From: Malacoraja senta
Lineage: Eukaryota
DNA: 64,000 bases
Direction: 5' to 3'
NCBI GenBank assembly: GCA_038087875.1
Contig: CM075988.1
Coordinates: forward strand, 10,480,001 to 10,544,000
The notes beneath the pieces are model-generated. The model saw only the letters and a list, made by a program, of their open reading frames with translations, made no database searches and was not told the DNA's origin. A program made the position numbers and the translations under genes. Positions 8,854 through 64,000 of this stretch are shown piece after piece (positions within the stretch are counted from its first letter, which is position 1; each line of letters begins with the position of its first letter).

Positions 8854-9057
8854 TGTAGATGAGATATGCATGTGCCTTTAACATAGTGACCTCATACCTA
8901 CTAACCACTCCCCATATCACAAGTATATCTACAACCTCCCAACCCACAGATCGCTCTCTAGTTCCTGTGACAGACCACGTACAGCTAGTGCAATGTGTAA
9001 TGCTCCAGTATGAATAAAGATAGTAAAGTAACGACGCCTCATTATGAAGTCTTTACA
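8854..9057 (+). repeat. 5' LTR
   Basis: TGTAGATG...CTTTACA with AATAAA near the 3' end; differs from the 3' LTR only at 8941 (A) vs 13483 (C). Confidence 0.97.
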
Positions 9058-9065
9058 TGGTGTCA
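9058..9065 (+). promoter_or_regulatory. Primer-binding site (tRNA-Leu-like, short)
   Basis: TGGTGTCA immediately after the 5' LTR; matches the first 8 nt of the usual tRNA-Leu PBS (TGGTGTCAG...). Confidence 0.75.
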
Positions 9066-9153
9066 AATAACTTACCTTGCGCCTCCTGTTTATCGGTTTA
9101 TCATTTAATTTTGTCCCAGTTTTTTGTTTCCCCCGCCCTCCTGTTTCTTTGTC

Positions 9154-12100
9154 ATGGCCTCTTCTGCCCGTAAGCCCGATGTGCTCGTTTTTGATTTAGA
9201 CATCGCCCTTCGATGGGACATATTCAAACGTGACTTTGAACACTATTTCACGATCGCTCATCCTGACGCCACCCCCGCTCTCAAAGCCTCTCTGCTTCTC
9301 AACTTGGCTGGTCCCGAGGCCCTGACTCGCTCCGACTTCTTCGTCTACGCTGTTGGAGAATCAGCTCGGGACCCGGTATGTCTGTTGGCTAAGTTTGACG
9401 CTATTTGTGACATTCCGACTAATTGCATCTTAGAACGTTTTAAACTGTTCGCGCGGCGTCAGCTCCCTGGGGAATCTGCTGAGAACTATGTCATTGCGCT
9501 GCGGCACCTCGGAAGGCGCTGCCGCCTCCACGCGTGGAACCCCGATGAGATTATCAGGGACCTTCTGGTTTACGGTCTCCGTGATGAGAAGCTCAGGTCC
9601 GAACTTCTGTGCAAGCCGGATCTGACTTTAGCCGATGCTATGCACGCTACTCGCTTAGCTGACGCTGTTTCCTCGGCGGCGTCGCCGGCTGAGCAGGCGA
9701 TCAACTTTGCCAGCACTCCCAGTCATCTCATGAACACACCCCAGTCGCGACCCCCAGGGTCGCTCGCTGCTCGAGGGGGACGCGCCCCGGGGTTCGGTGC
9801 TGCTACAGGGGGAGGTACCCGGCAAAGGTGCCCTAATTGCAACTTCACAACTCATCAATTCAATGTGTGCCCTGCTTTGGGAAAAACTTGTAATGTCTGC
9901 AATAAATTGAACCATTTTGCTGCGGCTTGTCGTTCCCGTGGGAAGCCTGTCGCTGCTCGAAGGGGAAATTTAAACAACCTTCTACAAGCTGACAATGAGC
10001 TCAGCTCCCAGTGCTATTCCGATGAACATTCTGTTTCTACATCTGACTCCTCTCTGGGGGAGACCAACTTGTTTACCGTGTGGGACGCACCTGCTATGAT
10101 AACGGATCCTTCTGTGCAAGTCACTGTGAACAACTCGACCTTCACTGCTAAAATCGACACGGGGGCGGTGACCAACGTAATGTCAACATCCCTTTTCAAC
10201 CAGATAAGAACTAATGAGCAGATATTTTCCCAGAGCTCAACCTTGCATGCCTACGGTGGGGAGATTCTTACTCCTGTGGGCAAGGCCACGCTACACTGTA
10301 AGATACTAGAGACCACTCGGCCCCTCACCTTCTATCTCCTCAATCGAAAATGCATTCCCCTGCTGGGGATCCAGGCATGCCAGGAAATGGGACTGGTGTA
10401 CTTCCACCGGGACATCCACCAGGTGCAGACTCTTATGGACACGCTGGCCGATTATCCCGACCGCTTTGATGATAAGCTAGGCAAACTACCCTGCAGCTAC
10501 AAGATTGTAGTGGATCATAAGATCGTTCCTGTGGTCCATGCTCCTCACCGTGTCTCCTTCGCCATGAGGGACAAAGTGGAGGCGACCCTACACAGTATGG
10601 TACAAATGGGCGTCCTAAAGGCGGTCGTCGAGCCCACCAGCTGGGTCTCTTCCATGGTTGTTGCTGCTAAAAAGGACATGAGCGAGATACGCATCTGCAT
10701 CAACCCCAAAGACCTCAACCTGGCCATTCGACGCCCTCACTACCCTATGAGAACGGTGGAAGACGTCGCTGCACAGGTTGGTCCAGCAACGGTTTTTTCT
10801 GTCCTCGATGCCAAAAGCTCCTTCTGGCAGATACCACTGGACGAGCGGTCGTCCATTTTGACAACTTTCGCCACCCCCTACGGAAGGTTTCGGTTCCTCC
10901 GAATGCCATTCGGGATCAACTCTGCCAGCGAGGTATTTCAGCGGACAATGGAGCAGTTGTTTTTAGGTCTACCTTGCGCCATAATTGTTGACGACATCCT
11001 CGTTTACGGTAAGGACGTTGCCGAACACGATGTCAACCTCCGCCTGGTCCTGGACCGGGCCCGGCAAATCAACTTGAAACTGAACCCCAAGAAGTGCCGA
11101 TTCCGCGTCTCGGAGGTCACCTATGTTGGACATGTATTCACCGCTGAGGGATTAAAGCCAGACCCGCAGAAAATGGCTGCCATCTCAGGGATGCCCCCTC
11201 CTACCAATGTGGCAGGCCTGCAACGCTTCCTCGGCTTGGTAAACTACCTGGGGAAGTTCATCCCCGACCTCAGCGAGCTCAGCGCTCCCCTGAGGGATCT
11301 GATCAAAAAGGACACGTCCTGGCTTTGGTTACCCAACCATCAGAAGGCATTTGACATTCTTAAGTCTAAGCTGATCAGCACCCCCACGCTCAAGTTCTTT
11401 GACCTGCAGCGTCCCATTGTCCTCACCTGCGACGCCTCTCAGTTCGGACTCGGTGCCGCCTGTCTCCAGGTCCATGACGGCCTGCAGCTGCCTGTCTCCT
11501 TCGCGTCCCGCACCATGACCGCCACCGAACAGCACTACTCGCAGATTGAGAAGGAGCTACTGGCCGTGGTGTTTGCCTGCTCCAAATTCCGGGACTACAT
11601 CGTGGGCAACACTTTCACCGTTGAAACTGACCATCAGCCACTTGTCACCATCCTCAACAAATCGATCCATGTGGCCTCATCACGCCTGCAGCGCATGATG
11701 CTGCAGCTCCAGCGCTTCACGTTCACGGTGGTTTATCGTAAGGGCAAGGACATGTTCGTGGCCGACACGTTGTCTCGCGCCCCGCTGACGTCCACCGCTC
11801 GCCACCAATATGAAATGTCTGAGTTATTGGTGCTACGATTGAACATCGTCCCCTCGCAGCAGATGAAGTCCCTGGTTGAACACACTACCAATGACCCTGC
11901 CCTGCAACAGCTGTCTGCCGTCATCCAGCGGGGCTGGCCTGACCGTCGTTCGGCACTGCCGGCTGGTGCCGTGCCCTACTTCCTGATTCGGGACGAGCTC
12001 GTACTGCACGACGGCGTGGTGGTGAAGGGTCACAAAGTGGTCGTGCCCGCGGCGCTGCACGACCACTATTTTCAAGTCGCACACCGCGGTCACCCTGGGG

Positions 12101-13326
12101 CCGAAGCCACCGTGTCTCTCGCCAGGAGCCAGTTCTATTGGCCGGATATGGCCAAATACATCTGGGAGAGGGTCTCCTCGTGTTCCACCTGCAACAGCCT
12201 CGCCCCCCATCAGCAGCGTCAGCCGCTTCTAGAGCAGCCCGCGCCCGAACTGCCCTGGATGGCGCTTGCCGCTGACATTTTCGAGTGGCGGGGCAAACAT
12301 TTCCTGGTTCTCGTTGACTCCTACTCCAGCTGGTTTGTGGTCGACCGGCTGCATTCCATGACCTCTTCGGCCATCATCGACAGGTTGTACCCTCATTTTG
12401 GCACTTTTGGCCCCCCGGCAAGCCTGCAGTCGGACAATGGCAGCCAGTTCACGAGCTCCGAGTTTAAAGCGTTCGCTTCCAGATGGAACTTCCGCCATTT
12501 CACCAGCAGCCCGGAGTACCCGCAAAGCAACGGTTTGGCCGAGCGCGCAGTCCGCAGTGCGAAGCACCTGTTGGAACAGTGTGGTGGCATTAACTCCGAC
12601 TTCCATCTGGCCCTCCTCCACCTTCGGAACATTTCCCGCGACTCTGCCATGGGTTCACCTGCTCAGCGGCTCATGTCTCGCGGTACCAGACTCCCGCTCC
12701 CTGTGGCCCAGCGCTCCCTCATATCCTCCATCCGCCCACCTGCGGCGGTTCAGAAACGCATTGCCTTCAGGCACGACGTCCAGCAGCGTTCCCATGACAG
12801 GTCCTGCCACCCGCTGCCGCGCCTCTTCCCCGGTCAAGTTGTCCGTATGCAGACTGCTCCCGGTCACTCCAAGCTCGCTACTGTCGTCGGCTCTGCGGGG
12901 TCGCCCAGGTCCTATCTCGTCGACCACGCTGGAGCCATTTACCGACGGTCCCGCCAGCACCTTCGGCTCGTCAACGAGCCGCGTCCTCCTGCCGCGGATC
13001 CCTTTGCTCCCCCACTGCCTGTTTCGCGTCAGGGCGTTGCTCTGCCCATCCTTCCTGACATGCAACGTTCTGCTCCTCCTCCGCCCCTTCCGTTCCACCC
13101 CACTCCGACTGGTCCTCGCTCGCCTGCCCGCGCTCTTCCCGGTCCCGACCTCGCATCCCCTCCGGGTTCGGTGCCGCGGTCTCCTCCGTCTCCTCCCGTT
13201 TCTCCCTTTCAGGTTCGTCTTTCCCCGCCGGTGCCTCTTCCTCCTGCAGGAAGGGTGGATGGCGAGACGCGAACCCGGGCGGGACGTCTTGTCAAACCGC
13301 CTGACCGCTATGGCGATTTTGTTTAA
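9154..13326 (+). CDS. Gag-Pol polyprotein (2 CCHC knuckles, aspartic protease, RT, RNase H, integrase)
   Basis: First ATG at 9154 in good context (GTCATGG; frame open from 9124). CPNCNFTTHQFNVC and CNVCNKLNHFAAAC; IDTGA; LDAKSSFWQ...IVDDIL; CDASQFGLGA, EKELLA, TDHQPL; HRGH...CSTC; SDNG-(35 aa)-ERAV; C-terminal RTRAGRLVKPPDRY. Confidence 0.95.
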   Translation: MASSARKPDVLVFDLDIALRWDIFKRDFEHYFTIAHPDATPALKASLLLNLAGPEALTRSDFFVYAVGESARDPVCLLAKFDAICDIPTNCILERFKLFARRQLPGESAENYVIALRHLGRRCRLHAWNPDEIIRDLLVYGLRDEKLRSELLCKPDLTLADAMHATRLADAVSSAASPAEQAINFASTPSHLMNTPQSRPPGSLAARGGRAPGFGAATGGGTRQRCPNCNFTTHQFNVCPALGKTCNVCNKLNHFAAACRSRGKPVAARRGNLNNLLQADNELSSQCYSDEHSVSTSDSSLGETNLFTVWDAPAMITDPSVQVTVNNSTFTAKIDTGAVTNVMSTSLFNQIRTNEQIFSQSSTLHAYGGEILTPVGKATLHCKILETTRPLTFYLLNRKCIPLLGIQACQEMGLVYFHRDIHQVQTLMDTLADYPDRFDDKLGKLPCSYKIVVDHKIVPVVHAPHRVSFAMRDKVEATLHSMVQMGVLKAVVEPTSWVSSMVVAAKKDMSEIRICINPKDLNLAIRRPHYPMRTVEDVAAQVGPATVFSVLDAKSSFWQIPLDERSSILTTFATPYGRFRFLRMPFGINSASEVFQRTMEQLFLGLPCAIIVDDILVYGKDVAEHDVNLRLVLDRARQINLKLNPKKCRFRVSEVTYVGHVFTAEGLKPDPQKMAAISGMPPPTNVAGLQRFLGLVNYLGKFIPDLSELSAPLRDLIKKDTSWLWLPNHQKAFDILKSKLISTPTLKFFDLQRPIVLTCDASQFGLGAACLQVHDGLQLPVSFASRTMTATEQHYSQIEKELLAVVFACSKFRDYIVGNTFTVETDHQPLVTILNKSIHVASSRLQRMMLQLQRFTFTVVYRKGKDMFVADTLSRAPLTSTARHQYEMSELLVLRLNIVPSQQMKSLVEHTTNDPALQQLSAVIQRGWPDRRSALPAGAVPYFLIRDELVLHDGVVVKGHKVVVPAALHDHYFQVAHRGHPGAEATVSLARSQFYWPDMAKYIWERVSSCSTCNSLAPHQQRQPLLEQPAPELPWMALAADIFEWRGKHFLVLVDSYSSWFVVDRLHSMTSSAIIDRLYPHFGTFGPPASLQSDNGSQFTSSEFKAFASRWNFRHFTSSPEYPQSNGLAERAVRSAKHLLEQCGGINSDFHLALLHLRNISRDSAMGSPAQRLMSRGTRLPLPVAQRSLISSIRPPAAVQKRIAFRHDVQQRSHDRSCHPLPRLFPGQVVRMQTAPGHSKLATVVGSAGSPRSYLVDHAGAIYRRSRQHLRLVNEPRPPAADPFAPPLPVSRQGVALPILPDMQRSAPPPPLPFHPTPTGPRSPARALPGPDLASPPGSVPRSPPSPPVSPFQVRLSPPVPLPPAGRVDGETRTRAGRLVKPPDRYGDFV

Positions 13327-13383
13327 CTATCCTAGCGCATGAGCCGTGGTCGCCATGTCACCATTGTATTTGCCTGTCGTTTC

Positions 13384-13395
13384 GAAGAGGAAAGA
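13384..13395 (+). promoter_or_regulatory. Polypurine tract
   Basis: GAAGAGGAAAGA directly before the 3' LTR. Confidence 0.9.
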
Positions 13396-13599
13396 TGTAG
13401 ATGAGATATGCATGTGCCTTTAACATAGTGACCTCATACCTACTAACCACTCCCCATATCACAAGTATATCTACAACCTCCCCACCCACAGATCGCTCTC
13501 TAGTTCCTGTGACAGACCACGTACAGCTAGTGCAATGTGTAATGCTCCAGTATGAATAAAGATAGTAAAGTAACGACGCCTCATTATGAAGTCTTTACA
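13396..13599 (+). repeat. 3' LTR
   Basis: 204-bp direct repeat of 8854-9057. Confidence 0.97.
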
Positions 13600-14040: not shown

Positions 14041-14330
14041 AGTTTAGTTTAGTGTAGAGTTACAGCACAGAAACAGGCTCTTCGCCCACCGAGTCCACAC
14101 CGACCAGCGATCCTCGCACACTAACATTACCCTACACACACTAAGGACAATTGACACTTACACCAAGCCAATTAAACTATAAATCTGTACGTCTTTCGAG
14201 CATGGAAACTGGAGAAAACCCACGCAGATCACAGGGAGAACATACAAACTCCATACAGACGGCACCCGTAGTCAGGATTAAACCCGTGTCTCTGGCATGG
14301 TAGGCAGCAACCCTACTTCTGTTCCACCCT
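14041..14330 (-). mobile_element. HE1-like V-SINE inserted in a degenerate CR1 3' end (about 13700-14480)
   Basis: (AGTTT)n tail then reverse-complement SINE body; CR1-like GGTGAAGAATCTTTGGAATTATCTGCCC on the left flank and CR1 3'UTR on the right. Confidence 0.8.
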
Positions 14331-17436: not shown

Positions 17437-20400
17437 TTTTTTTTAAACTCGAAGGAATGCCTACTAATAAATCGTTTTGGAGATTTAATCCTCAAATCCT
17501 AAATGATCCACAAGGGGAAATATATCCAAAACAACAGATGGAACTTTTTTTCAAGACTAATGATATCCCATAGATTTCACCAACCTTACTATGGGAATCT
17601 TTCAAAGCATTTATTAGAGGATCTATAATCTCATACCAAGCTTTTCTAAATAAAAATAATAAGAATGAACAAAGGCAGTTAGAAGAACGAATTAGACAAT
17701 TGGATTTAGAAAACGCTAAAGAGCCAACTATAGATAAACATAATAAAATAACAATATTGAAATTTAAATTAAATACAATATTATCAGCAAATGTTATAAG
17801 ATTATTTTAAATTACAAAACAGGAAATTTTTGAATTTGGGGATAAACCACACAAACTTTTGGCGACAACTGAAAAAACGGGAAAAAGATCATACGATTTT
17901 AAAGATTAAATCAGATAAAGGGGAATTGTTAACACTACCTAAGGATATTAATAAAAGATTCGCTCAATTTTATCAAAATTTATATACATCTAAAGCGTTA
18001 GCAGATAGTACTAAAGTTATAGAGTTCCTGGATAATTGTAATCTCCCAAAACTTAACATGTTCGAACAAGAGGAATTAGGTGCACAAATCTCAACTAAGG
18101 AAATAGAAGAAACAATAAATTCATTAAAGAATGGAAAAACACCAGGACCAGATGGTTTTAGTAATAAATTTTATAAAAGATTCTACGAGATAATTACACC
18201 ACGGTTACATAAAATGTATACATATGCTTTTAAAGAACATACACTTCCAGAAACACGAGCGGAATCAACGATTACACTTATACCTAAAAAAGATAAAGAT
18301 TTAGAAGACCCGGGTTCTTATAGAGCTATTGCGCTGTTAAATACAGATCAAAAAATATTAGCGAAAACATTAGCTAGAAGATTAAGTAAATATGTTAGTA
18401 AATTAATAAATGCGGATCAAACGGGGTTTATACCCAAGAGATACTCATGCAATAATCTGAGACGTCTGTTTAACATAATGCACTCATATAAAACCGAAGA
18501 ACAAGACTTATCAATTATTTCATTGGACGCAGAAAAAGCATTTGATCAAGTGTAATGGGATTACCTTGTTAAAGTATTGCAAAAATTTCAAATGGGAGAG
18601 AATTTTATCGCTTGGGTAAAATTATTATATGACAGGCCTACTGCCAGAATATTAACTAATAATATGTTGTCCCCAAATTTTCAATTATCAAGGGGAAATA
18701 GACAGGGATGTTCATTATCACCTCTGCTATTTGCTCTTGTAATAGAACCGTTAGCGGAAAGTATTAGAATACATCCGCATATCCATGGTTATAATACAAA
18801 ATACTCAAATAATAAAATATCATTATATGCAGATGATGTACTATTATATATTACAAAATCACAAATCAGTATACCAAATATATTAAATCTAATAGAGGAA
18901 TTTGGATCCTTTTCAGGATATAGAATAAATTGGAATAAAGGTGAAATTATGACGATAAAACCTTGACTCAACACACCTGTTAAAATTCCCTTTTAAAATT
19001 GCTTCAGAAAAATTCAAATACTTGGGAATTGAAATTACTAGAAAATATAAATCTTTATTTAATGCAAACTATATGCCCTTACTCAATAAACTAAACATAC
19101 TGATTAAATGTTGGAAAACTCTTCCGATGTCTCTAATAGGCCGAATAAATGCTATACAAATGATTTTTTTACCACAAATTTTATATCTATTCCAATCAAT
19201 ACCGATATACTTACCACATTTTTTTTTGTTTTAACTGGATGCTGATATCACAAATTTTATATGGGACAATAAATCCCATAGAATTCAAAGAAGACATTTG
19301 TGCAAACCTAAAGAATTTGGCGGATTAACACTCCCTAATTTTTTGTATTATTATTGGGCCGCAAATGTCAAAAATATGATTCACCTGTTGGACAATTCGG
19401 CCCAGCAGGTGGATTGGATAGTAATGGAGAGAGAGGATTGTTCCCCTTTTAATATAGGAGCGATTCTTCTCTCACCAACAAAATTGAAGAATACAATATA
19501 TAGTAAAAATCCAATTATTCATAGTACAATTAGAATTTGGAAACAAATAAAATTAACTTTAAAATTAAGAAATCTATCACTTCTTTCACCTATAGTGAAT
19601 AATCCGTCGTTTAAACCATCTATTATAGATAAATCTTTTACACACTGGGATAGATTAGGAATTAAAACGTTTGGAGACATGTATGATAATGGAATTTTTT
19701 TTTAATCATTTCACCAACTACAACTTAAATACAACTTGAGTAGTAATCAATATTTTAAATATTTTCAAATCCGTGACTATTTGAAAAAATATACACAAGA
19801 ATATCAAAATATGTCTCCAGACCTATTAGATGATGCAATGAATATAAAAGCGGAATCAACTAATTTAATATCATACTTGTATAATACCATCCTAAATATA
19901 GAAATACCATCATCTGATAGGATTAGAAGAGACTGGGAACAAAAACTAGCTATAAAAATCTCGAAAGAGAGTTGGGATAAACACTTGTTATATGTGCATA
20001 AATGCTCGATTAATGTAAGACACATTCTAATTCAATTTAAAACTTTGCATAGACTATACTACTCAAAAGCTAAAATAAGTAAATTTTACCCAAATGTCTC
20101 TTCTATCTGTGATAAATGTCTAACCCAAGAAGCAACTATAGCACATTCTTTTGTTTTTTGTACAAAAATTCAAACATTTTGGAATGAAATCTTTGAAATT
20201 TTTACGAAATTATTTTAAATGAAACTGAAACCGAATGCAGAACTGATCATTTTTGGCTCAATCGAAGCCAGTTTGGAGCTGACCGTTTCAAAAGAGCTTC
20301 CTTAATTATGGCTTAATAATGGCAAAAAAACTTATACTGAAATTCTGGAAAAATGCTCCCACGCCAACGATAAAAATGTGGATTTCTAATATGTCGGAAC

Positions 20401-20909: not shown

Positions 20910-21425
20910 ACTATGGTAGAAGGCTGTGGAGGCCGTCAATTGATATTTTTAAGGCAGGTGGTGCAGCAGTAGAGTTGCTGCCTAACAACGCTTGCAGCGC
21001 CAGAAACCTTTGTTCAATTCCGACAACGAGTTTGTACTCTCTCCCCGTGACCGTGTGAGTTTTCTCTGGGATCTTCGGTTTCCTCCCATACTCCAAAGAT
21101 GTACAGGCTTGTAGGTTAATTGGCTTGGTATAAGTGTAAATTGTCCCTAGTGTGTGTAGGTTAGTGTTGATGTGTGGGGATTGCTGGTCAGTGCGGTCTC
21201 GGTGGGCCAAAGGGCCTGTTTCCACGCTGTATCTCTAAACATAAAACTAAACTAAACTAAGATAGATAAATTCTTGAATAGTAAAAGTGTTATGGGTTGT
21301 AGGGAGAAGGCAAGATAAAGGGGTTAAGAGGGAAAGATAGATCAGCCATGATTGAATGGCAGAGTAGACTTGATGGGCCAAATGGCCTAATTCTGCTCTT
21401 ATCACTTACGAACTTATGAACTATG
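20910..21425 (+). mobile_element. CR1 3' end interrupted by an HE1-like SINE (20958-21259)
   Basis: CR1 ...GATATTTTTAAGGCAG resumes as AGATAGATAAATTCTTGA after the (ACTAA)n SINE tail. Confidence 0.85.
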
Positions 21426-32335: not shown

Positions 32336-32640
32336 GGGCGACACAGTGGCGCGCTTATAGAGATAGTATCTTACAGACCTAAGTTAGATCCTGACTATGG
32401 TTGATGTCTGTACGGAGGTTTTATGTCCTCCCCATGACCACGTGGGTTTTCTCCAAGTGCTCCAGTTTCCTCCAACGCTCCAAAGATGTACAGGTTTGTA
32501 GGTTAATTGGCTTTGGTAAAATTGTTAATTTTCCCTAGTGTGTAAGATCATGCTAGTGTATGGGGTGATCGCTGGTCGGCACAGACTCAGTGGGCCAAAC
32601 GGCCAGTTTCCGCACTGCATCTCTAAAGTCAAAAGTCCAA
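32336..32640 (+). mobile_element. HE1-like SINE
   Basis: V-domain CGTGGGTTTTCTCC...CTCCAAAGATGTACAGGTTTGTAGGTTAATTGGC and tail. Confidence 0.85.
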
Positions 32641-37793: not shown

Positions 37794-38651
37794 ATACAAT
37801 ACAATACAATACAATACCGTTTATTGTCATTTGATCCTCAAATGAAGTTCAAACGAAATTTGGTTTCTGCAGTCATACAACAAGAAAAGAACCAAGACAC
37901 AACACAATTTACACAAACATCCATCGCAGTGAATCTCCTCCTCACTGTGATGGAAGGCAAAGTCTTATCCCTCCCCTGCACTCCACATTCTCCTCCCGAT
38001 GTCAAAGTCAAAGCCCCCGGCGGGCGATGGTAAATATGTCCCGCGGGTATTAAAGCCGTGCCGGGCGATGCAAGGCCACGCTCCAGGTCTTGATGTTGGA
38101 GCCCCCGGTAGCGCTAGCAAGTCCAGCAGCCATTAAAGCCACGCCGGGCGATGTAAGACCCCGCTCCAGGTCATTTTCAACCCCGCAACTCGGGCGGGAG
38201 AAGTCCCCATTGCGGGAGCTCCGAAAAGCGGTCTCCCACCAGGGACCCGCGAGCTCCCGATGTCACCGTCCACCGGGCTGGCGGCTGGAGCCTCCGAATC
38301 TCCGGGGTCGGGTCGCAGCGGCGCGCCACCACAGCTCTCCACGCTCCGAACTCGGCCAGCTCCACGATGGTGAGTAGTCCGCAGGCTCCGTGACTGGAGC
38401 CCCAGGTCGTTCCGGTTGGAGGCCGCTCCACGGTGCTAGGCCCCAACGACAACGGAGACCCGACTGATAAAGGTCTGGTCTCCCGTGCAGGGAAAAGATT
38501 TTAAAAGTTTCCCCCACACTGCCCCCCCACCCCCCGCCCCCCACACATACCCAGTTAAAAAAAACACAATAAACCAAACTCAAACGAAACAAAAAAATAA
38601 AAAAGACAGACGGACTGCAGAGGCCACTGCGACGTGAGTCGCGCCGCCCAC
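37794..38651 (-). mobile_element. GC-rich non-coding retroposon related to 5812-6548
   Basis: (CAATA)n tail plus TTTATTGTCATTTG on the + strand; shared core and head with 5812-6548; CpG-rich body. Confidence 0.65.
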
Positions 38652-39053
38652 TGCCTGTGGAGTTTTGATATCCTGGGGTCAATGCTGCCAATTTGCAATG
38701 TTCACATGGTACATTGCAAGGTTTCTTCAAACCATCAGTCCTTTTACTCAAAAACAAAAAAACTGTGGAGGCCTGCAGCAGATACTGAGGAAGGGAGTCC
38801 AGTCAACTTAATGAACAATGTAAGCCATCACACTCATGGTGGGTACCCCATGTTTAATCTATATAACTAAAACTCTCACCTTGACCACTTCCTGTCTGCG
38901 CTGTATATTGATTTTAGAAAAAAACGCTACCATATCTCGCTAGGATTTTGGGCCATCTTATTCACAGTCCTCCTCCGCTGAGGCAGCCCGAAGGATTCTT
39001 CCGATCGATGAAAAATAAAAAAGTTATGAGTGTTTAAAAAATATTGAGATCAG

Positions 39054-39124
39054 CTGATTGGTCCTCTCACCTGTCAATCACCACGGTGAAGGTAACACCC
39101 CTTCCGGGGGGCAGGACTATAAAA
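39054..39124 (+). promoter_or_regulatory. Candidate Pol II promoter module inside the Helitron-like element
   Basis: CTGATTGG (reverse CCAAT, 39054-39061), CTGTCAATCA (reverse TGATTGACAG, 39071-39080), CTTCCGG (ETS, 39101-39107), GGGGGGCAGG, TATAAAA (39118-39124). Confidence 0.5.
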
Positions 39125-39130
39125 CGCAGA

Positions 39131-39709
39131 TGCCTGAAATGCTGTGAAATTGAGTTTGGTGGGCTGTATTCTGCCTGAGATGCAGTGAAATTGAGTTTGG
39201 TGGCCTGCACTCTGCCTGAGATGCTTGAAATTAGGTCTGGTGGCCTGCACTCTGCCTGAGATGCTATGAAATTGAGTCTGTGGCCTGCACTCTGCCTGGG
39301 ATGCTATGAAATTGAGTCTGGTGGCCTGCACTCTGCCCGTGATGCTATGAAATTGAGTCTGGTGGCTTGCACTCTGGCTGAGATGCTATGAAATTCAGTC
39401 TGATGGCCTGCACTCTGCCTGAGATGCCTTGAAATAGAGTCTGGTGGCTTGCACTCTGCCAGGGATGCTATGAAATTGAGTCTGGTGACCTGCACTGCGT
39501 GAAATGCTATGAAATTGAGTCTGGTGGCCTGCACTGCTTGAAATGCTATGAAATTGAGTCTGGTGGTCTGCACTCTGCTTGAAATACTATGAAATTGAGT
39601 CTGGTGGCCTGCACTCTGCTTGAAATACTATGAAAGTAAGTCTGGTGGCCTGCACTCTGCTTGAAATGCTATGAAATTGTTTTTGGTGGCCTGCACTCTG
39701 CTTGAAATG
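39131..39709. repeat. Minisatellite, about 14 copies of a 41-bp unit
   Basis: Consensus TGAAATTGAGTCTGGTGGCCTGCACTCTGCCTGAGATGCTA, head to tail, units of 39-41 bp. Confidence 0.95.
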
Positions 39710-39724
39710 GAATTTCAAGAATAG

Positions 39725-39835
39725 CTGTGAGTGAACTGCCATCCTACCAGCCCTGAGTGACTGAGCTGCCAGCCTACCAGTCCTGAGTGGCTGAGCTGCC
39801 AGCCCACCAGACCTGAGTGACTGAACTGCCAGCAC
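39725..39835. repeat. Minisatellite, about 3.5 copies of a 30-bp unit
   Basis: CTGAGTGACTGAGCTGCCAGCCTACCAGNC. Confidence 0.9.
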
Positions 39836-40881
39836 AATAATCCATTCGGCACACAATGTCCATACCAGCCCTCTGGAAACCAGTCCCTTCGGCTCACAAC
39901 ACCCATACTAGCGCTCCAGAAAGCCCCCCCCTCACCCTCCCCCGTTGGCCACCAATATTCAAATTCGTGGAGAGGTGGAATATTGCGTTGGGGGGCCAGC
40001 CCTCCCGTGTGAACATGGGACCCCAACGGGTCCCACTTAGTCGAGTATTCAATAGAAGTAAGGCAGCAAAAAAGGTTACGAGTTTCATTAAGTTGGGAAA
40101 AAAGTCAGTTATGACCCATCAAGTCAAAGCCATGAGTCTGTTTCAATTGCCTGCCAAATAATGGTTAACTACTCATTTGAATTCTTCACAAAGGCAACAA
40201 CAGTGTATTAACAGCTGAGCCTGCAAGAAATATTGTTTACTATGATTATAGTACAGAATAAAACCTCCCATCTGTTGCTGTTGGAGAAGTACTTGCCTAC
40301 CCAGCAGGAGATTCCTATCAGGCTGCTACTCTATCAGTGATTGGTGCCAAACGCCTGCTGTTTTCCACAGGGAAAAGGAACTCAAATACATTGGATGGTT
40401 GGAGATTTAACACCACCCACGGAGATCACATTCACATCAGGATATCGCAAAGTCTTTGATATTGGGTACAGGATCGGGCGCAAGCCCTCTCCTTTGAATG
40501 CAATTACCTCCAAAATATAAAGGTGTTTTTATTACATCTCTTCGCTGTGGATGTCGTGGTTTATTTTGAAAAAGGCTGATTGTCAGAGAGTCATGGCTTC
40601 TTATCACAGTGTGTAGTAAGCCAAGGCTTCTTATTGTGACAGGGCAGGATTCTTTGGTTTAAAGAGAGCTATGACAAAGAACAGCTAAATGCGCAGAAAG
40701 TAATTTTGTTAACCCAATGAGCCATAGGAAAACAAACAGTGAAATGCATGTCAGAAATAGACATCAGTGAAGTGTACATTGGATATGTTATAGGGAATCA
40801 CCAAGTATTCCTAATCCATCAGGTTAATCAAAAATACTTCTGATGGATCTAGATTAAATATGTTTAAAAATGGTAAATGTC

Positions 40882-41431: not shown

Positions 41432-42011
41432 AAAATGGTAAATGTCCAATTACAAAACTCCACTAAACATATTGGGGCCTTTATTGGACTTGGAAACTTT
41501 CATTTTTTAGAGTGAAGGAAGCCTTTTATTCTCCAAATAATCTGGCGATCTTATACTTTCAACCACAACCAAAGTGTATGCCAAATGGTAAACTCTCCCT
41601 CCCTGTGTTGGCTGAGATGACTGTAGCCTCTGCACGCAATCTCAACATCACTAAACTACCAAAGAAGCCAAGCGATCAATCCTCTTCGCATAAGTTCAAG
41701 AGCAACCAGTGCCTGAGATGTCTGTGCCTGACTAAAGAGCCAGTGATGTACATCTGTCACCATCTGCTGCCACTAACCCAGAGTTTGGCAAGAACCAGAT
41801 TATTTCTGGCCGTCAATGTGACTAGGACTCTGAAATTGTATTCACCTGGATGCTTTTCGGCTGCTGCTCTAGGGATAGGTGTGACTACATAAGCAGGGGG
41901 TGCAGCGAGAGGGTCACACTGAGGCTCTCTGTCCAAAAGAAACAGCTTCACCTCATTCTCTCTTTCCGGATTCAAACACACAGAACCAGCACAGGAGTTT
42001 ACAAGAATTCT

Positions 42012-42313
42012 GGGCGGCACGGTGGCATAGCGGTGGAGCTAATGCCTTACAGCGCCAGAGATCCTGACTATGGGCACTGTCTGAGCGGAGTTTGTCCATT
42101 CTCCCCATGACCTGCATGGGTTTTCTCCGAGATCTTTGGTTTCCTCCCACACTCCAAAGGTGTACAGGTTTGTAGGTTAATTGGACTGGTATAAATGTAA
42201 AATTTCGCCTAGAGAGTGTAGGGTAGTGTTATTGTGAGGGGATCGCTGGTGGGTGCAGACTCGGTGGGCGGAGGGCCTGTTTCCGTGCTATATCTCTAAA
42301 CTAAATTAAACTA
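42012..42313 (+). mobile_element. HE1-like SINE
   Basis: GGGCGGCACGGTGGCATAGCGG head, V-domain, (CTAAA)n tail. Confidence 0.9.
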
Positions 42314-46555: not shown

Positions 46556-46866
46556 GTTAGTTTTAGTTTTAGTTTAGAGATGCAATGCGTAAACAGGCCC
46601 TTTGGTCCACCAAGTCCGCATCGGCCAGCGATCCCCGCACATTAACACTATCCTACACACCAGGGAAAATTTACAATTTTACCAAGCCAATTAACCCACA
46701 AACCTGTACGTTTTATGGAGTGTGGGAGGAAACCTGAGCTCCTGGGGAAAACCCATGCAGGTCGTGGGGAGAATGTATAAACTCCGTACAAACACCATCT
46801 GTGGTCAGGATCGAACCCGGATCTCTGGCGCTGTAAGACAGAACTCTACCGCTGTGCCGCCCTGCC
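46556..46866 (-). mobile_element. HE1-like SINE nested in a PLE repeat
   Basis: Full reverse-complement SINE; left flank GATGCTGCCTGACCC, right flank TAGCATCTGGAGTTCCTTGTGTC. Confidence 0.88.
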
Positions 46867-47774: not shown

Positions 47775-48053
47775 ACAATGGCACAGCGGTAAAGTTGAAA
47801 CCCGGGTTCGATCCTGGCTACAGGTACTGTCTGTATGGAGTTTGTACGTTCTCCCCGTGATCGCATGGGTTTTCTCCGAAACCTTTGGTTTCCCCCCACA
47901 GCCCACAAATGTACGTTTGTAGGCTAATTGGCTTGTATATATATGTAAATTGTCCCTAGTATGTGTAGGATAGTGCTAGTGTGCGGGGATCGCTGGTCGG
48001 TGCGGACTTGGTGGGCCGAAGGGCATTCTGCGCTGTATCTCTAAACTAAACTA
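47775..48053 (+). mobile_element. HE1-like SINE nested in a PLE repeat
   Basis: B box GGTTCGATCC, V-domain, tail; PLE arms on both sides. Confidence 0.88.
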
Positions 48054-48948
48054 ATTGGGTCTGGACGTTGCCTGACTTGGTGAATTACTCCAGCACCTCT
48101 TTTTTTGGTCTTTTCTTTGGTAAACCGACATCTGCAGTTCCTCGTGTCTTCAGGAATATCTCCTTCTGGCCAAATAGAAGAGCACAGCAGTGAACTCAAC
48201 TCAAGTTGTGCAATATTCTATGGTTCAAGTAATCAAGATATCTGTTCACAAATTCCTTTTCGTCTCCTTTCTAAAAGTATGTCCTTTTATTCTGAGTCCA
48301 TGGCCTCTGCTCCTACACTCTCCCACTAGTGGGAACATCTATTGTTATTGCAGAGCTAGATTAACTACAGATCTACCAACATGATTATTTCTGGGTCGTA
48401 AAGGTATTATATCTGGGAGAATCCCTTCACTTTATAAGGTTGACTAGCAGATTCAATTTTGATTAACGTTCCTGAGATTATGTTTAACTGATTCGGGAGA
48501 ACAGACATGGTAGTGTTAATTTAACACATGGGAAATTCCAAAATGAGGGAGAACAAATGTAAAGTGAGAAAGAATGTAGAAACAAGGAATAGCAGACGCT
48601 GGTTTACAAAACAAAGGAGACAATGCGCTGGAGTAGCTCAGCGGGTCAGGCACCATCTCTGGGGACAATAGATAGATGACATTTTGAGTTGGGACCCATC
48701 TTCAAATTGGCACAGTTCATAAAGTGAGAAATGGGTTATTCTATGGAAATGAATCCTGGAATTCTCTCTTAAAAAAGATCATGAATGTTGATTGATTGTC
48801 ATTTGCTTAACTGAGATAAATAGATCATTTGTCAGGTAAGGAATGCATTATGGTGATCTGTCTAAATAAACAAAAGGTCACGTTCAAAAGCCAGAATGTT
48901 CCAATATTTTTGTAAACTGATCGAGTAATATGAAACACTGAACTATGA

Positions 48949-49270
48949 TGGGCGGCACGATGGCGTCATGGTAGAGCAACTGCTTTACAGTACCAGAGAC
49001 CCGGGTTCGATCCTGACTACGGGTGCTTGTCTGCACAGAGTTTGTATGTTGGCCCTGTGACCTGTGTAGGTTTTCTCTGAGATCTTCAGTTTCCTCCCAC
49101 ACTCCAAAGACAAACACGTTTGTAGGTTAATTGGCTTGGTTATCAATGTAAAATTGTCGCTAGTGTGTGTGGGTAGTGTTAGTGTGCGGGGATTGCTAGT
49201 TGGTGCGGACTCGGTGGGCCAAAGGACCTGTTTCTGCACTGTATCTCTAAGCTAAACTAAAAACTAAACT
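48949..49270 (+). mobile_element. HE1-like SINE, full length
   Basis: GGGCGGCACGATGGCG head, GGTTCGATCC, (CTAAA)n tail. Confidence 0.9.
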
Positions 49271-60131: not shown

Positions 60132-60365
60132 GACTATGGATGTTGTCTGTATGGAGTTTGTACGTTCTCCCTGTGACTGCGTTGGTTTTCCCCGGGTGCT
60201 CCAGTTTTCTCCCACGCTCCAAAGACGTACAAATTTGTAGGTTAATTGGCTTAGGTAAGTTATAAATTGTTGCTGGTTTGTAGTGTGTGCTACTGTAACG
60301 GGGATCGCTGGTTGGCGTGGAGTCGGTGATCCAAAGGGCCTATTTCCACTTTGTTTTTCTAAACT
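60132..60365 (+). mobile_element. HE1-like SINE, 5'-truncated
   Basis: V-domain and tail. Confidence 0.85.
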
Positions 60366-60797: not shown

Positions 60798-60978
60798 TTC
60801 AGAACTGCTGTAGATTTGGGAGCAACAGCAGCAGGAGATTAGCAAGAGATACGACTGATTGGCTCTAGCCCGAGTGGGAGGAGAGAAGTGAGTCAGAGGG
60901 GGGAAAAACAGTTGAAAAGTAGAAGCCAAGCACAGGCAGACTTTATTCTTAATAGGACCAGTTAATTACTTATATAAG

Positions 60979-61932
60979 ATGGGTGGCCAGGAGATGTGCC
61001 AATACTGTGAGATGTGGGAAATTGTCGACACCATTGATGTAGATGATCCCTACAGCTGCAGTAAGTGTTTGAAGCTAGCGGAACTCGAGCTCCGCATTGA
61101 TGAGCTGGAGACCCAACTTCATACGCTGCGGTGCATCAGGGAGGGGGAGTATTACCTGGATGTTTTGTGCCAGGGGATGGTCACACTGACCAGTTTAACT
61201 AATTCAGTAGTTAGTGAGCAGGGAAAGGAAGGTGTGGCCATAAGCGAGGCAGGTAGGGGGAACCAGGAGGAGATGCGGCAGGAGCCACAGCCCTTGTCCC
61301 TGACGAGCATGACCGAGGCTCTTACTCAATGTGAGGATGGGATCAGGGGCTGTGGGAGGGATGAGCAACCTGGCTGCAGCACCGTGGATCAGGGGGCCAT
61401 TCAAGAGGGGGGAGTTAGAAGAAATGCCGTGGTGATAGGGGATAGTATTATTCGGGGGGTAGATAAGGTTCTCTGCGGCCAGCAGAACATGTCCCGAAGG
61501 CTGTGTTGCCTACCCGGTGCTAGGGTTAAGGATATCTCTGCGATGCTGGAGAGAAATTTGCAGAGTGAGGGGGAGGATCCAGTGGTCGTGGTCCATGTGG
61601 GGACCAATGACATAGGAAGGACGAGGAAGGAGGATCTGCTGAACGAGTTTGAGCAGTTAGGGAATAAATTAAAAAGCAGAACCTCGAGGGTACTGATCTC
61701 CGGATTGCTACCTGAGCCACGGGCCAAATCGGCGAGGGTACGAAAAATTAAAAAGCTGAATGCGTGGCTCAAAGACTGGTGTGGGAAAAATGGGTTTGGT
61801 TTCTTGGGCCACTGGCACCAGTACTGGGACAGGGGGGATCTGTTCTGTAAGGACGGACTTCACCTGAACGGTGCTGGGACTGGGGTCCTGGCAAATCATA
61901 TAACTAGGGCAGTAGAGAGGTCTTTAAACTAA
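60979..61932 (+). CDS. CR1 ORF1p: CxxC...CxxC zinc finger, coiled coil, SGNH/GDSL esterase
   Basis: CQYC...CSKC, LAELELRIDELETQL, VIGDSII, LPGA, HVGTND, DGLHLN. Confidence 0.92.
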   Translation: MGGQEMCQYCEMWEIVDTIDVDDPYSCSKCLKLAELELRIDELETQLHTLRCIREGEYYLDVLCQGMVTLTSLTNSVVSEQGKEGVAISEAGRGNQEEMRQEPQPLSLTSMTEALTQCEDGIRGCGRDEQPGCSTVDQGAIQEGGVRRNAVVIGDSIIRGVDKVLCGQQNMSRRLCCLPGARVKDISAMLERNLQSEGEDPVVVVHVGTNDIGRTRKEDLLNEFEQLGNKLKSRTSRVLISGLLPEPRAKSARVRKIKKLNAWLKDWCGKNGFGFLGHWHQYWDRGDLFCKDGLHLNGAGTGVLANHITRAVERSLN

Positions 61933-62021
61933 GTAGCGGGGGGGAGGTATCAAGGGGGGTAATAACGGCAGGGGTAGAGGAAATAGAGCAGGGTATCAGT
62001 GGGGAAACGGAAAATCAAAAT

Positions 62022-64000
62022 GTGACAGGAGGATCCAGAATGTGTGAAGATAAAGCTCTAGATGTAAAAGGGGCAAAAACAGAAAGGAAGGGTAGTAAAA
62101 ATCATCTGAAAGTGCTGTATCTAAATGCACGGAGTATTCGAAATAAGATAAATGAATTAACGGTGCAATTAAGTACATATAGTTATGATATCGTGGCCAT
62201 TACAGAGACATGGCTGCAAGGGGATCAGGATTGGGAGTTAAATATAGAGGGGTACTCGACAATTAGAAAAGATAGACAGGAAAGAAAGGGAGGAGGGGTG
62301 GCCCTTTTAATAAGGGAGGGAATAACGGCAATAGAGAGGAAGGATATTGCGTTGAAGGATCAGGATAGTGAAACAGCTTGGGTACAGATAGAGAATAACA
62401 AGGGGAAAAAAACACTAGTGGGTGTAATTTATAGACCTCCAAATAGCTGTGACGCTGTTAGTCAGAACATAAATCTGCAAATAGTTGACGCATGTAAAAA
62501 GGGAACTGCTGTAATCATGGGGGACTTCAATTTTCATATTAATTGGGCAAACCAAACTGGGCAGGGTAGACTAGAGGAAGAGTTTATAGAATGTATTAGA
62601 GACGGGTTCCTAGAACAGTATGTCACAGAACCGACAAGGAGGGAGGCAATCTTGGATCTGGTCCTGTGTAATGAAGCAGGATTAATTAAAAATGTCATAG
62701 TTAGGGACTCGTTGGGAACAAGTGACCACAATATGGTCGAATTCCATATTCAAATAGAAGGAGAGCAGGTTGAAACTCAGGCTAGGGTACTTAGTCTAAA
62801 TAAAGGGGATTATGAAGGTATGAGGACTGAGCTGATCAAAGTTGACTGGGATAGCAGACTCAAGAATAAGACGGTACATGAGCAGTGGTGTACGTTTAAG
62901 GATCTACTGTATAACCTTCAAGAAAAATTTATTCCTATGAAGAAAAAAAGTGGTAAGGGAAAGAACAGTCAGCCATGGCTCAGTAAAACTATAAAGGATA
63001 GTATTCGGCTGAAGGCAAGGGCATATAAGGTAGCTAGAGATAGTGGGAGGGTAGAGGATTGGGAAGCATTTAAAGGTCAGCAAAAAATAACTAAGAGATT
63101 AATTAAGACGGGGAAAATAGACTATGAAAGGAATTTAGCGAACAACATAAAAACTAATAGAAAGAGTTTTTATAGCTATATAAAAAGAAAAAGGGTGGCT
63201 AAGGTGAACGTTGGTCCATTGGAGGGTGAGACTGGAGAGTTGTTGGTGGGGAACATGGAAATGGCAAAGGCATTAAACGAGTATTTTGTATAGTCTTCAC
63301 CATAGAAGACACAAAAAATATTCCAACGCTGGATAAACAGGGGGCGGTAGGAATGGAGGAGCTAAATACTATTAAGATCACCAAGGAGGTGGTATTAGGG
63401 AAATTAATGAGACTGAAGGAGGATAAATCCCCTGGGCCTGATGGATTACATCCAAGGGTCTTGAGGGAGATAGCGGTGGGGATTGTGGATGCATTGGTGA
63501 TAATTTTCCAAAACTCCCTGGAGGCAGGAACGGTCCCAGTGGATTGGAAAATGGCCAATGTAACACCTATATTTAAAAAAGGAAGTAAACAGAAGGCGGG
63601 TAACTATAGACCGGTTAGTCTAACATCGGTGGTGGGTAAAATGTTAGAGACAATTATTAAAGAAACACTAACGGGGCACTTGGATAAACATGACTTCATC
63701 GGACAGAACCAGCATGGTTTTGTGAAGGGGAAGTCCTGTTTAACGAATCTGCTCGAATTCTTTGAGGAAGTAACAACCCGGGTGGATAAAGGGGAACCAG
63801 TGGATGTGGTATACTTGGACTTCCAAAAGGCTTTTGACAAGGTGCCACATAAGAGACTATTGCTAAAAATAAAAAATTATGGGATTGGGGGTAATATATT
63901 AGCATGGGTAGAAGATAGGCTAACAAATAGGAAGCAGAGAGTGGGGATAAATGGTTCATACTCGGGATGGCAACCGGTAACTAGTGGGGTTCCGCAAGGG
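62022..64000 (+). pseudogene. CR1 ORF2p (APE endonuclease plus RT) with a single 1-nt frameshift near 63291
   Basis: YLNARS, ITETWL, YRPP, GDFN, LDLV, SDHN up to TAG at 63291-63293; shifted frame 63293-64000 is open: KSPGPDG, NYRPVSLTS, QHGF, YLDFQKAFDKVPH, SGVPQG. Confidence 0.9.

Follow-up and report, generated by a model that had tools for sequence, protein, structure and literature searches.

A probable non-autonomous canonical Helitron with a promoter-type module and internal minisatellites in a repeat-rich window of Malacoraja senta

Results

Repeats and open reading frames in the window

The window, a stretch of 64,000 nucleotides from contig CM075988.1 of Malacoraja senta, consists of repeat-rich vertebrate-type DNA that contains a Ty3-type pol open reading frame (ORF), LINE fragments, many short dispersed repeats and, at positions 38858-40045, the element described here. 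The Ty3/gypsy-type retrotransposon lies at 8854-13599 and has a 1,405-aa ORF (9109-13326) with reverse transcriptase, RNase H and integrase domains; its 204-bp direct repeats (8854-9057 and 13396-13599) are 99.5% alike and it is apparently young. A LINE at 60916-63293, presumably CR1-like, carries an ORF1 of the GDSL-esterase type, 338 aa when measured between stops, and after it an ORF for an endonuclease, and a second LINE reverse-transcriptase region at 17800-20218 is split by stops into several ORFs. A dispersed repeat of about 300 bp, which we take to be SINE-like, is present in at least 10 copies that are 72-84% alike (20-321, 1635-1940, 14045-14311, 21028-21255, 32375-32633, 42011-42310, 46558-46866, 47797-48056, 48949-49261 and 60132-60365), and a 52-bp direct repeat (38038-38172, 83% alike) is found about 700 bp upstream of the element. 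When 136 of the 145 ORFs were compared with Pfam, the 9 simple-repeat ORFs being excluded, none had a match, so that no host gene or exon was recognized at 30-50 kb, and there were no Rfam matches in the 64-kb window.

Element ends and internal arrays

The element at 38858-40045 is 1,188 bp long, non-autonomous and probably of the Helitron1 type. It starts with TC at 38858-59, directly after an A at 38857 which would be the host A of an A|T target site, and its left terminal region (38858-39049, + strand) is AT-rich and common to sister lineages that, in contig alignments, either diverge over the initial ~22 bp or are internally deleted. At the other end, a GC-rich terminal hairpin (40016-40035, + strand) is formed by an 8-bp stem (40016-23/40028-35) and a 4-nt loop, and 10 nt separate the stem from the probable 3' end CGAG at 40042-45, which is followed by host T at 40046. 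In this one copy, the 3' tetranucleotide CGAG has one mismatch to CTAG/CTRR. An alternative end at CTTAG (40040) was weighed and disfavored, the end at 40045 being preferred because its hairpin spacing fits, and in this copy the target-site duplication has a length of 0 for both candidate ends. All the Helitron-type ends reported in the preliminary description of this DNA, namely A|TC, an 8-bp hairpin, CGAG|T and the lack of a target-site duplication, were thus recovered at their places.

Helentrons (Helitron2, DINE-1 type) are defined by sub-terminal inverted repeats and a TT target. The present element lies at an A|T target and has no sub-terminal inverted repeats, the best inverted match between its 5' and 3' parts covering 10 bases, of which 9 agree, and including a gap (score 13). 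The flanks contain, at almost symmetrical places, the two arms of a perfect 12-bp inverted repeat (38804-15/40084-95); it was treated as chance, because a score at least as high was reached by 41 of 1,491 flank pairs drawn at random. Pfam matches were obtained for 0 of the 9 ORFs overlapping 38858-40045, so that there is no RepHel ORF among them, and no second copy of the element occurs elsewhere in the 64-kb window.

Much of the interior is tandemly repeated. A 41-bp minisatellite of 14.3 units (39131-39709, + strand, 88% matches) is followed by a 30-bp minisatellite of 3.6 units (39727-39833, + strand), in agreement with the 14 x 41-bp array and subsequent 30-bp array noticed before, and by a third duplication at 39841-39922 (+ strand), absent from the preliminary description, in which two copies of about 43 bp are alike at 29 of 39 aligned bases. 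Neighboring 41-bp units differ by a mean of 4.8, and units at a distance of 5 or more by about 7; as adjacent units are most alike, the array appears to have grown by local duplication or slippage. No clear homology links the 41-bp unit with the 30-bp unit or with the ends of the element.

A promoter-type module near the left end

A cluster of motifs that spans 71 bp from 39054 is located about 200 bp into the element. Its first part is a DECA-CCAAT composite on the - strand (39055-39080), in which TGATTGACAG (DECA) is followed by CCAAT in the context GGACCAATCAG; on the + strand it reads as a reverse CCAAT box, ATTGG, at 39057-61 and as CTGTCAATCA, the reverse of TGATTGACAG, at 39071-80, which occurs only once in 64 kb. 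The spacer in GAnnGAC-11 bp-CCAAT was measured as 11 with both motifs on the same strand, and thereby matches the TALE/NF-Y/Sp2 geometry. Next to the composite, an Sp/KLF-like box, an ETS core and a G-run or GC-like box follow at 39094-39115 (+ strand), with the ETS core CTTCCGG at 39101-07 and GGGGGGCAGG at 39106-15; the factor names Sp/KLF and ETS are our assumption for these boxes. The GC-like box, at 39108-39116, departs from a perfect Sp1-type box by a single G>A change, at CpG position 39113. A TATA box, TATAAAA, at 39118-39124 (+ strand) points into the element. The cluster was present as previously noticed, and the promoter-type pairing of DECA and NF-Y motifs turned out to be more exactly canonical than proposed; both motifs but not their spacing had been named.

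Pyrimidine-purine steps at +26 and +28 of the TATA box (39144 and 39146) are candidate transcription starts, and CCAAT lies 85-89 bp ahead of the candidate start at 39146. It had been suggested that a start 25-30 nt past the TATA box would fall in the first 41-bp unit, and positions 39143-39150 are indeed inside it. Between the TATA box and the end of the element there is no AATAAA, the first one being located at 40257, and following the module neither a match to the splice donor pattern nor an exon-like ORF was found.

An order-2 Markov model predicts 2.7e-4 occurrences per 64 kb of a perfect decamer that has CCAAT at the canonical spacing. Once the decamer is taken as present, finding CCAAT at exactly this spacing and on this strand has P 0.0013, and finding a TATA box or the ETS 7-mer within 70 bp has P 0.05 and 0.007, respectively. 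The looser pattern GAnnGAC-N11-CCAAT matches once in the window versus 0.14 expected and, because 13 of 100 shuffles also reach one match, is on its own not significant window-wide.

Copies in other genomes

Sampled words were present at 23-46% in 20 of the 23 runs listed (7 organism labels, 9 studies), and no RNA run was among those listed as carrying them. Contigs from the three large runs X1, X2 and X10 and from run X22, which is flagged as probably DNA, were aligned to positions 38760-39172, and 6,434, 6,398, 7,205 and 330 contigs, respectively, were aligned. In X1, X2 and X10 the summed depth is between 0 and 31 on the flank and reaches 1e5-1e6 at 38858. Depth does not equal copy number here; division by the flank depth gives about 350 to 25,000, too wide a range for a count. 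Before 38857, where contig matches begin, 129, 241, 242 and 17 contigs in X1, X2, X10 and X22 have unrelated AT-rich flanks with an agreement of 0.36-0.42. From the jump in depth and the unrelated flanks it follows that the A|TC boundary is real and that there are at least 100 insertion sites per genome. The element therefore belongs to a dispersed, multi-copy mobile family with its 5' boundary at 38857/38858, as anticipated in the preliminary description: more than 100 unrelated flanks per run share the 5' end in X1, X2 and X10.

The left end and the module are joined on single contigs, such as record 25 of X22 (38857-39095) and record 11 of X10 (38859-39095). In X1 the left flank at 38760-38843 is without cover. 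X2 and X10 each have a single flank contig that stops about 30 nt into the element; judging from these two contigs, the same insertion is probably present in organisms B and G. Loci obtained elsewhere in a pattern scan (metagenome 0 + 21, viral 2, genome 15; 38 in total) are chance matches and were dropped because their similarity is confined to the seed, with 23 bp at best, and because a match to the window at E 1e-5 was obtained for none of them.

Several variants of the element were seen among the contigs, including internal deletions. In each of X1, X2 and X10, 41-70 contigs join at 38880 with different first ~22 bases and probably represent sister families with another left tip. A sister lineage with the decamer and without the CCAAT box is represented by 26 contigs of X2 and 5 of X22 that diverge behind 39050, where they continue with a GC-rich stretch; it provides a natural control for the composite element. 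Further to the right, positions 39126-39128 are thinly covered, with summed depths of 234, 23 and 207 versus 33,552, 4,715 and 14,575 at 39105, and 62 contigs of X2 depart from the alignment behind 39111, where their sequence goes on differently from that of the copy at 38858-40045. This hints that the direct junction of the TATA box with the array belongs to a small sub-lineage, perhaps an internal deletion, although G-run length and short contigs also lower the cover. That the junction occurs in few contigs is a weak hint against the earlier description of a promoter aimed at the array.

Variation within the family

Variant rows comprised 40 that were listed and 23 further ones, the latter corresponding to at most 6 of 35 places in X1. 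Among the variant rows listed, the copy in the window differs from the X1 majority at no fewer than 14 of 267 positions (at least 5.2%). At 39097 the family varies by A>G (71% in X1, so that G is the majority) and at 39105 by C>T (7-16%). None of the 29 listed X1 variant rows falls inside the DECA-CCAAT composite, none of the 14 listed majority differences falls in the 33 motif bases (P 0.15), and none of the 26 listed variable positions falls in the 19 CCAAT and DECA bases (P 0.13, or 0.25 without CpG sites). The motif bases thus lean towards constraint without reaching significance, and the same pattern is also expected from descent from one master. Conservation of the motifs above that of their neighbors, which had been named beforehand as a property to look for, was accordingly not significant (P 0.13-0.25).

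Of the minor-variant sites listed, 7 of 12 coincide with CpG bases, of which there are 18 (P ~1e-6), and one of the 7 belongs to the ETS core; the copy itself carries G>A at two CpGs of the module (39069 and 39097). Variation concentrated in this way at CpGs is a signature of germline methylation and neutral decay. The CpG decay is a record of past germline methylation and not of present silence in every tissue. The copy at 38858-40045 looks like a methylation-decayed passenger that is presumably silent.

Discussion

From its ends, its interior and the aligned contigs, the element at 38858-40045 is best explained, with a probability of about 0.7, as a non-autonomous canonical Helitron which belongs to a high-copy family in several related vertebrate species and of which the copy in the window is an old, decayed passenger. 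Its module is, as judged by the motifs, of RNA-polymerase-II promoter type, points inwards and is borne by the family, not peculiar to the locus at 38858-40045; its PBX/PREP and NF-Y sites are predicted from motif geometry.

Both outstanding features of the element have precedents. In bats, Helitrons have multiplied promoters from 15 genes, yielding 4,690 copies, and transcripts are driven by HelibatN3, according to the available text of PMC4224331 and PMC4778049. The present element resembles Myotis elements of the HelibatN3 type, as described there, in its TC start, its probable CTAG-type end, a hairpin at a similar distance of about 11 nt from the end, its lack of coding capacity, the promoter module at the left end and the high copy number; for HelibatN3 the donor gene has been identified and promoter activity has been shown, whereas here the promoter is followed by minisatellites and the module is known from sequence alone. 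Minisatellite-filled Helitrons are on record, in the available parts of PMC12001565 and PMC9659126, from Xenopus, zebrafish, Drosophila, bivalves and bats. Among them, Heli2Xen/Helitron-N2_XT, Helitron-N1_DR and Drosophila DINE-1 are similar in being composed largely of internal tandem arrays, and the Heli2Xen repeats likewise hold reverse CCAAT and GC-box motifs (supplement 3 of PMC12001565, as far as available), but these elements are described as Helitron2/Helentron-type, whereas the one at 38858-40045 has probably canonical ends and other unit sequences. The term DECA does not occur in the available portion of the Heli2Xen array table in the supplement of PMC12001565. As promoter-bearing and minisatellite-filled Helitrons have both been recorded already, their combination is of a known kind, and the suggestion of the preliminary description that the element might be an undescribed system is not supported. 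The literature listings contained nothing specific on Helitrons in cartilaginous fish, and the family may already be catalogued in Repbase or Dfam.

By analogy with established Helitrons, a RepHel transposase acting in trans would nick the TC end and copy one strand, copying would stop at the hairpin and CTAG-type end, and the product would be inserted between A and T without duplication. For Helraiser, the accessible text of PMC4778049 describes RepHel acting in trans, an essential left end and the hairpin as terminator, and places the palindrome 11 nt before the end, as compared with 10 nt for the hairpin here. The arrays would be minisatellites that grew inside the element by local slippage, and if the copy gave rise to any RNA, this would amount to incidental read-through of the arrays inside it. 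The exact geometry of the module would be accounted for by selection on master elements, with no function required of scattered copies.

Where the module came from is a separate question. We give a slightly better than even chance to the reading that it was the parent element's own promoter, retained after the coding region had been lost; this origin is favored over capture because the module is oriented in the direction in which a RepHel gene runs. In the autonomous Heli1Xen1, ChIP peaks lie at what the available text of PMC12001565 calls the 5' 'presumed promoter', and no autonomous parent of the present family was found. The main competitor, a possible though distinctly less probable one, is that the promoter of a host gene was captured, as in the case of HelibatN3 and NUBPL, and amplified by the Helitron, everything else being as above. 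A layout of DECA-CCAAT, ETS, GC and TATA is typical of host promoters, promoter-carrying bat Helitrons reach the highest copy numbers, and the sister lineage differs just before and just after the decamer, which makes the region of the module appear modular. Capture is disfavored by the orientation, which fits a transposase promoter, by the absence of a splice donor match or exon-like ORF downstream, and by the reverse CCAAT and GC-box motifs of the frog Heli2Xen repeats, as these indicate that such motifs recur within Helitrons. A further objection concerns the unity of the element: the left part of a Helitron might have been joined to the 3' end and arrays of another element, in keeping with the mismatch of the 3' end to CTAG, the thin cover of the junction between TATA and array, and the existence of internal-deletion variants and sister left ends. 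Such a composite is nevertheless unlikely, as A and T flank the proposed ends, the hairpin spacing fits, and neither a target-site duplication nor another junction mark is present inside.

Two further readings concern the meaning of the motifs. One, which builds on the earlier proposal, is that the element is a mobile cassette for expression, its promoter being directed at the 41-bp array so as to produce a repetitive non-coding RNA, or that a copy has been co-opted as a host promoter or enhancer. The exact geometry of the composite, the intact cores in a copy that is at least 5% diverged, the position of CCAAT 85-89 bp ahead of the candidate start and an insertion that appears to be common to three species speak for this reading. 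It is made improbable by the CpG decay in the family and in the copy, including inside the module, by a conservation of the cores that does not reach significance, by the lack of AATAAA between the TATA box and the element end and of any Rfam match, and by the 0 of 136 nearby ORFs with Pfam matches; the thin cover at 39126-39128 and the 62 X2 contigs leaving behind 39111 point weakly in the same direction, as G-run length may contribute to them. A working cassette for non-coding RNA is hence not what the data suggest. The idea that the motif cluster is due to chance draws on the way it was noticed, in a scan of 64 kb for anything notable, and on the ease with which a CCAAT is found within 30 bp of the decamer (P 0.14). 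We consider it very improbable in view of the values given above for the exact spacing and strand (0.0013), the TATA box (0.05) and the ETS core (0.007).

The present result is at the level of annotation: one more non-autonomous Helitron, combining minisatellites with a promoter module, joins those on record. Of the findings, only the canonical DECA-CCAAT element inside a high-copy transposon merits further pursuit. The arrangement GAnnGAC-11 bp-CCAAT is the cooperative geometry of TALE, NF-Y and Sp2 in mouse and zebrafish (bioRxiv 10.64898/2026.02.16.706105, available text), the DECA-CCAAT spacing being counted elsewhere, in the passages at hand, as 10 or 11 bp with the anchor unnamed. The composite in the window agrees with published ones in its perfect decamer, common strand and spacing (PMC6023610, PMC7793273 and 10.1101/720102, in the portions available), but those belong to mammalian and zebrafish host promoters and enhancers, whereas here the predicted sites are in a dispersed transposon family. 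The human LTR MER57 is comparable in that CCAAT and TALE sites borne by a transposon were spread through the genome; it differs in being an LTR element with the TALE site 3' of CCAAT and about 50 bp off, which is not the cooperative geometry, and LTR sites bound by NF-Y and TALE are described as mostly unmarked or enhancer-like and rarely as promoters (PMC12065363, available text). In the literature searched, which covered few subscription papers, no transposon or Helitron with the cooperative DECA-CCAAT geometry was found, and the available text of two zebrafish DECA papers contains no match to 'transpos' or 'repeat'.

We regard it as rather doubtful, though worth stating, that this Helitron family seeded TALE/NF-Y/Sp2 elements by the hundreds to thousands, each with the correct spacing and a TATA box, that it relies on maternal factors, in the early embryo or germline, for the opening of its left end, and that some of the copies have come to act as enhancers at the stage of genome activation or as promoters from which minisatellite RNA is made. 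Bound and active copies, if they exist, would matter because zygotic genome activation in zebrafish is, according to the zebrafish work, driven in part by DECA-CCAAT sites. With many copies, a known ancestral sequence and sister lineages that either keep or lack the CCAAT half, the family would then offer a natural experiment on how cooperative sites arise, decay and become co-opted.
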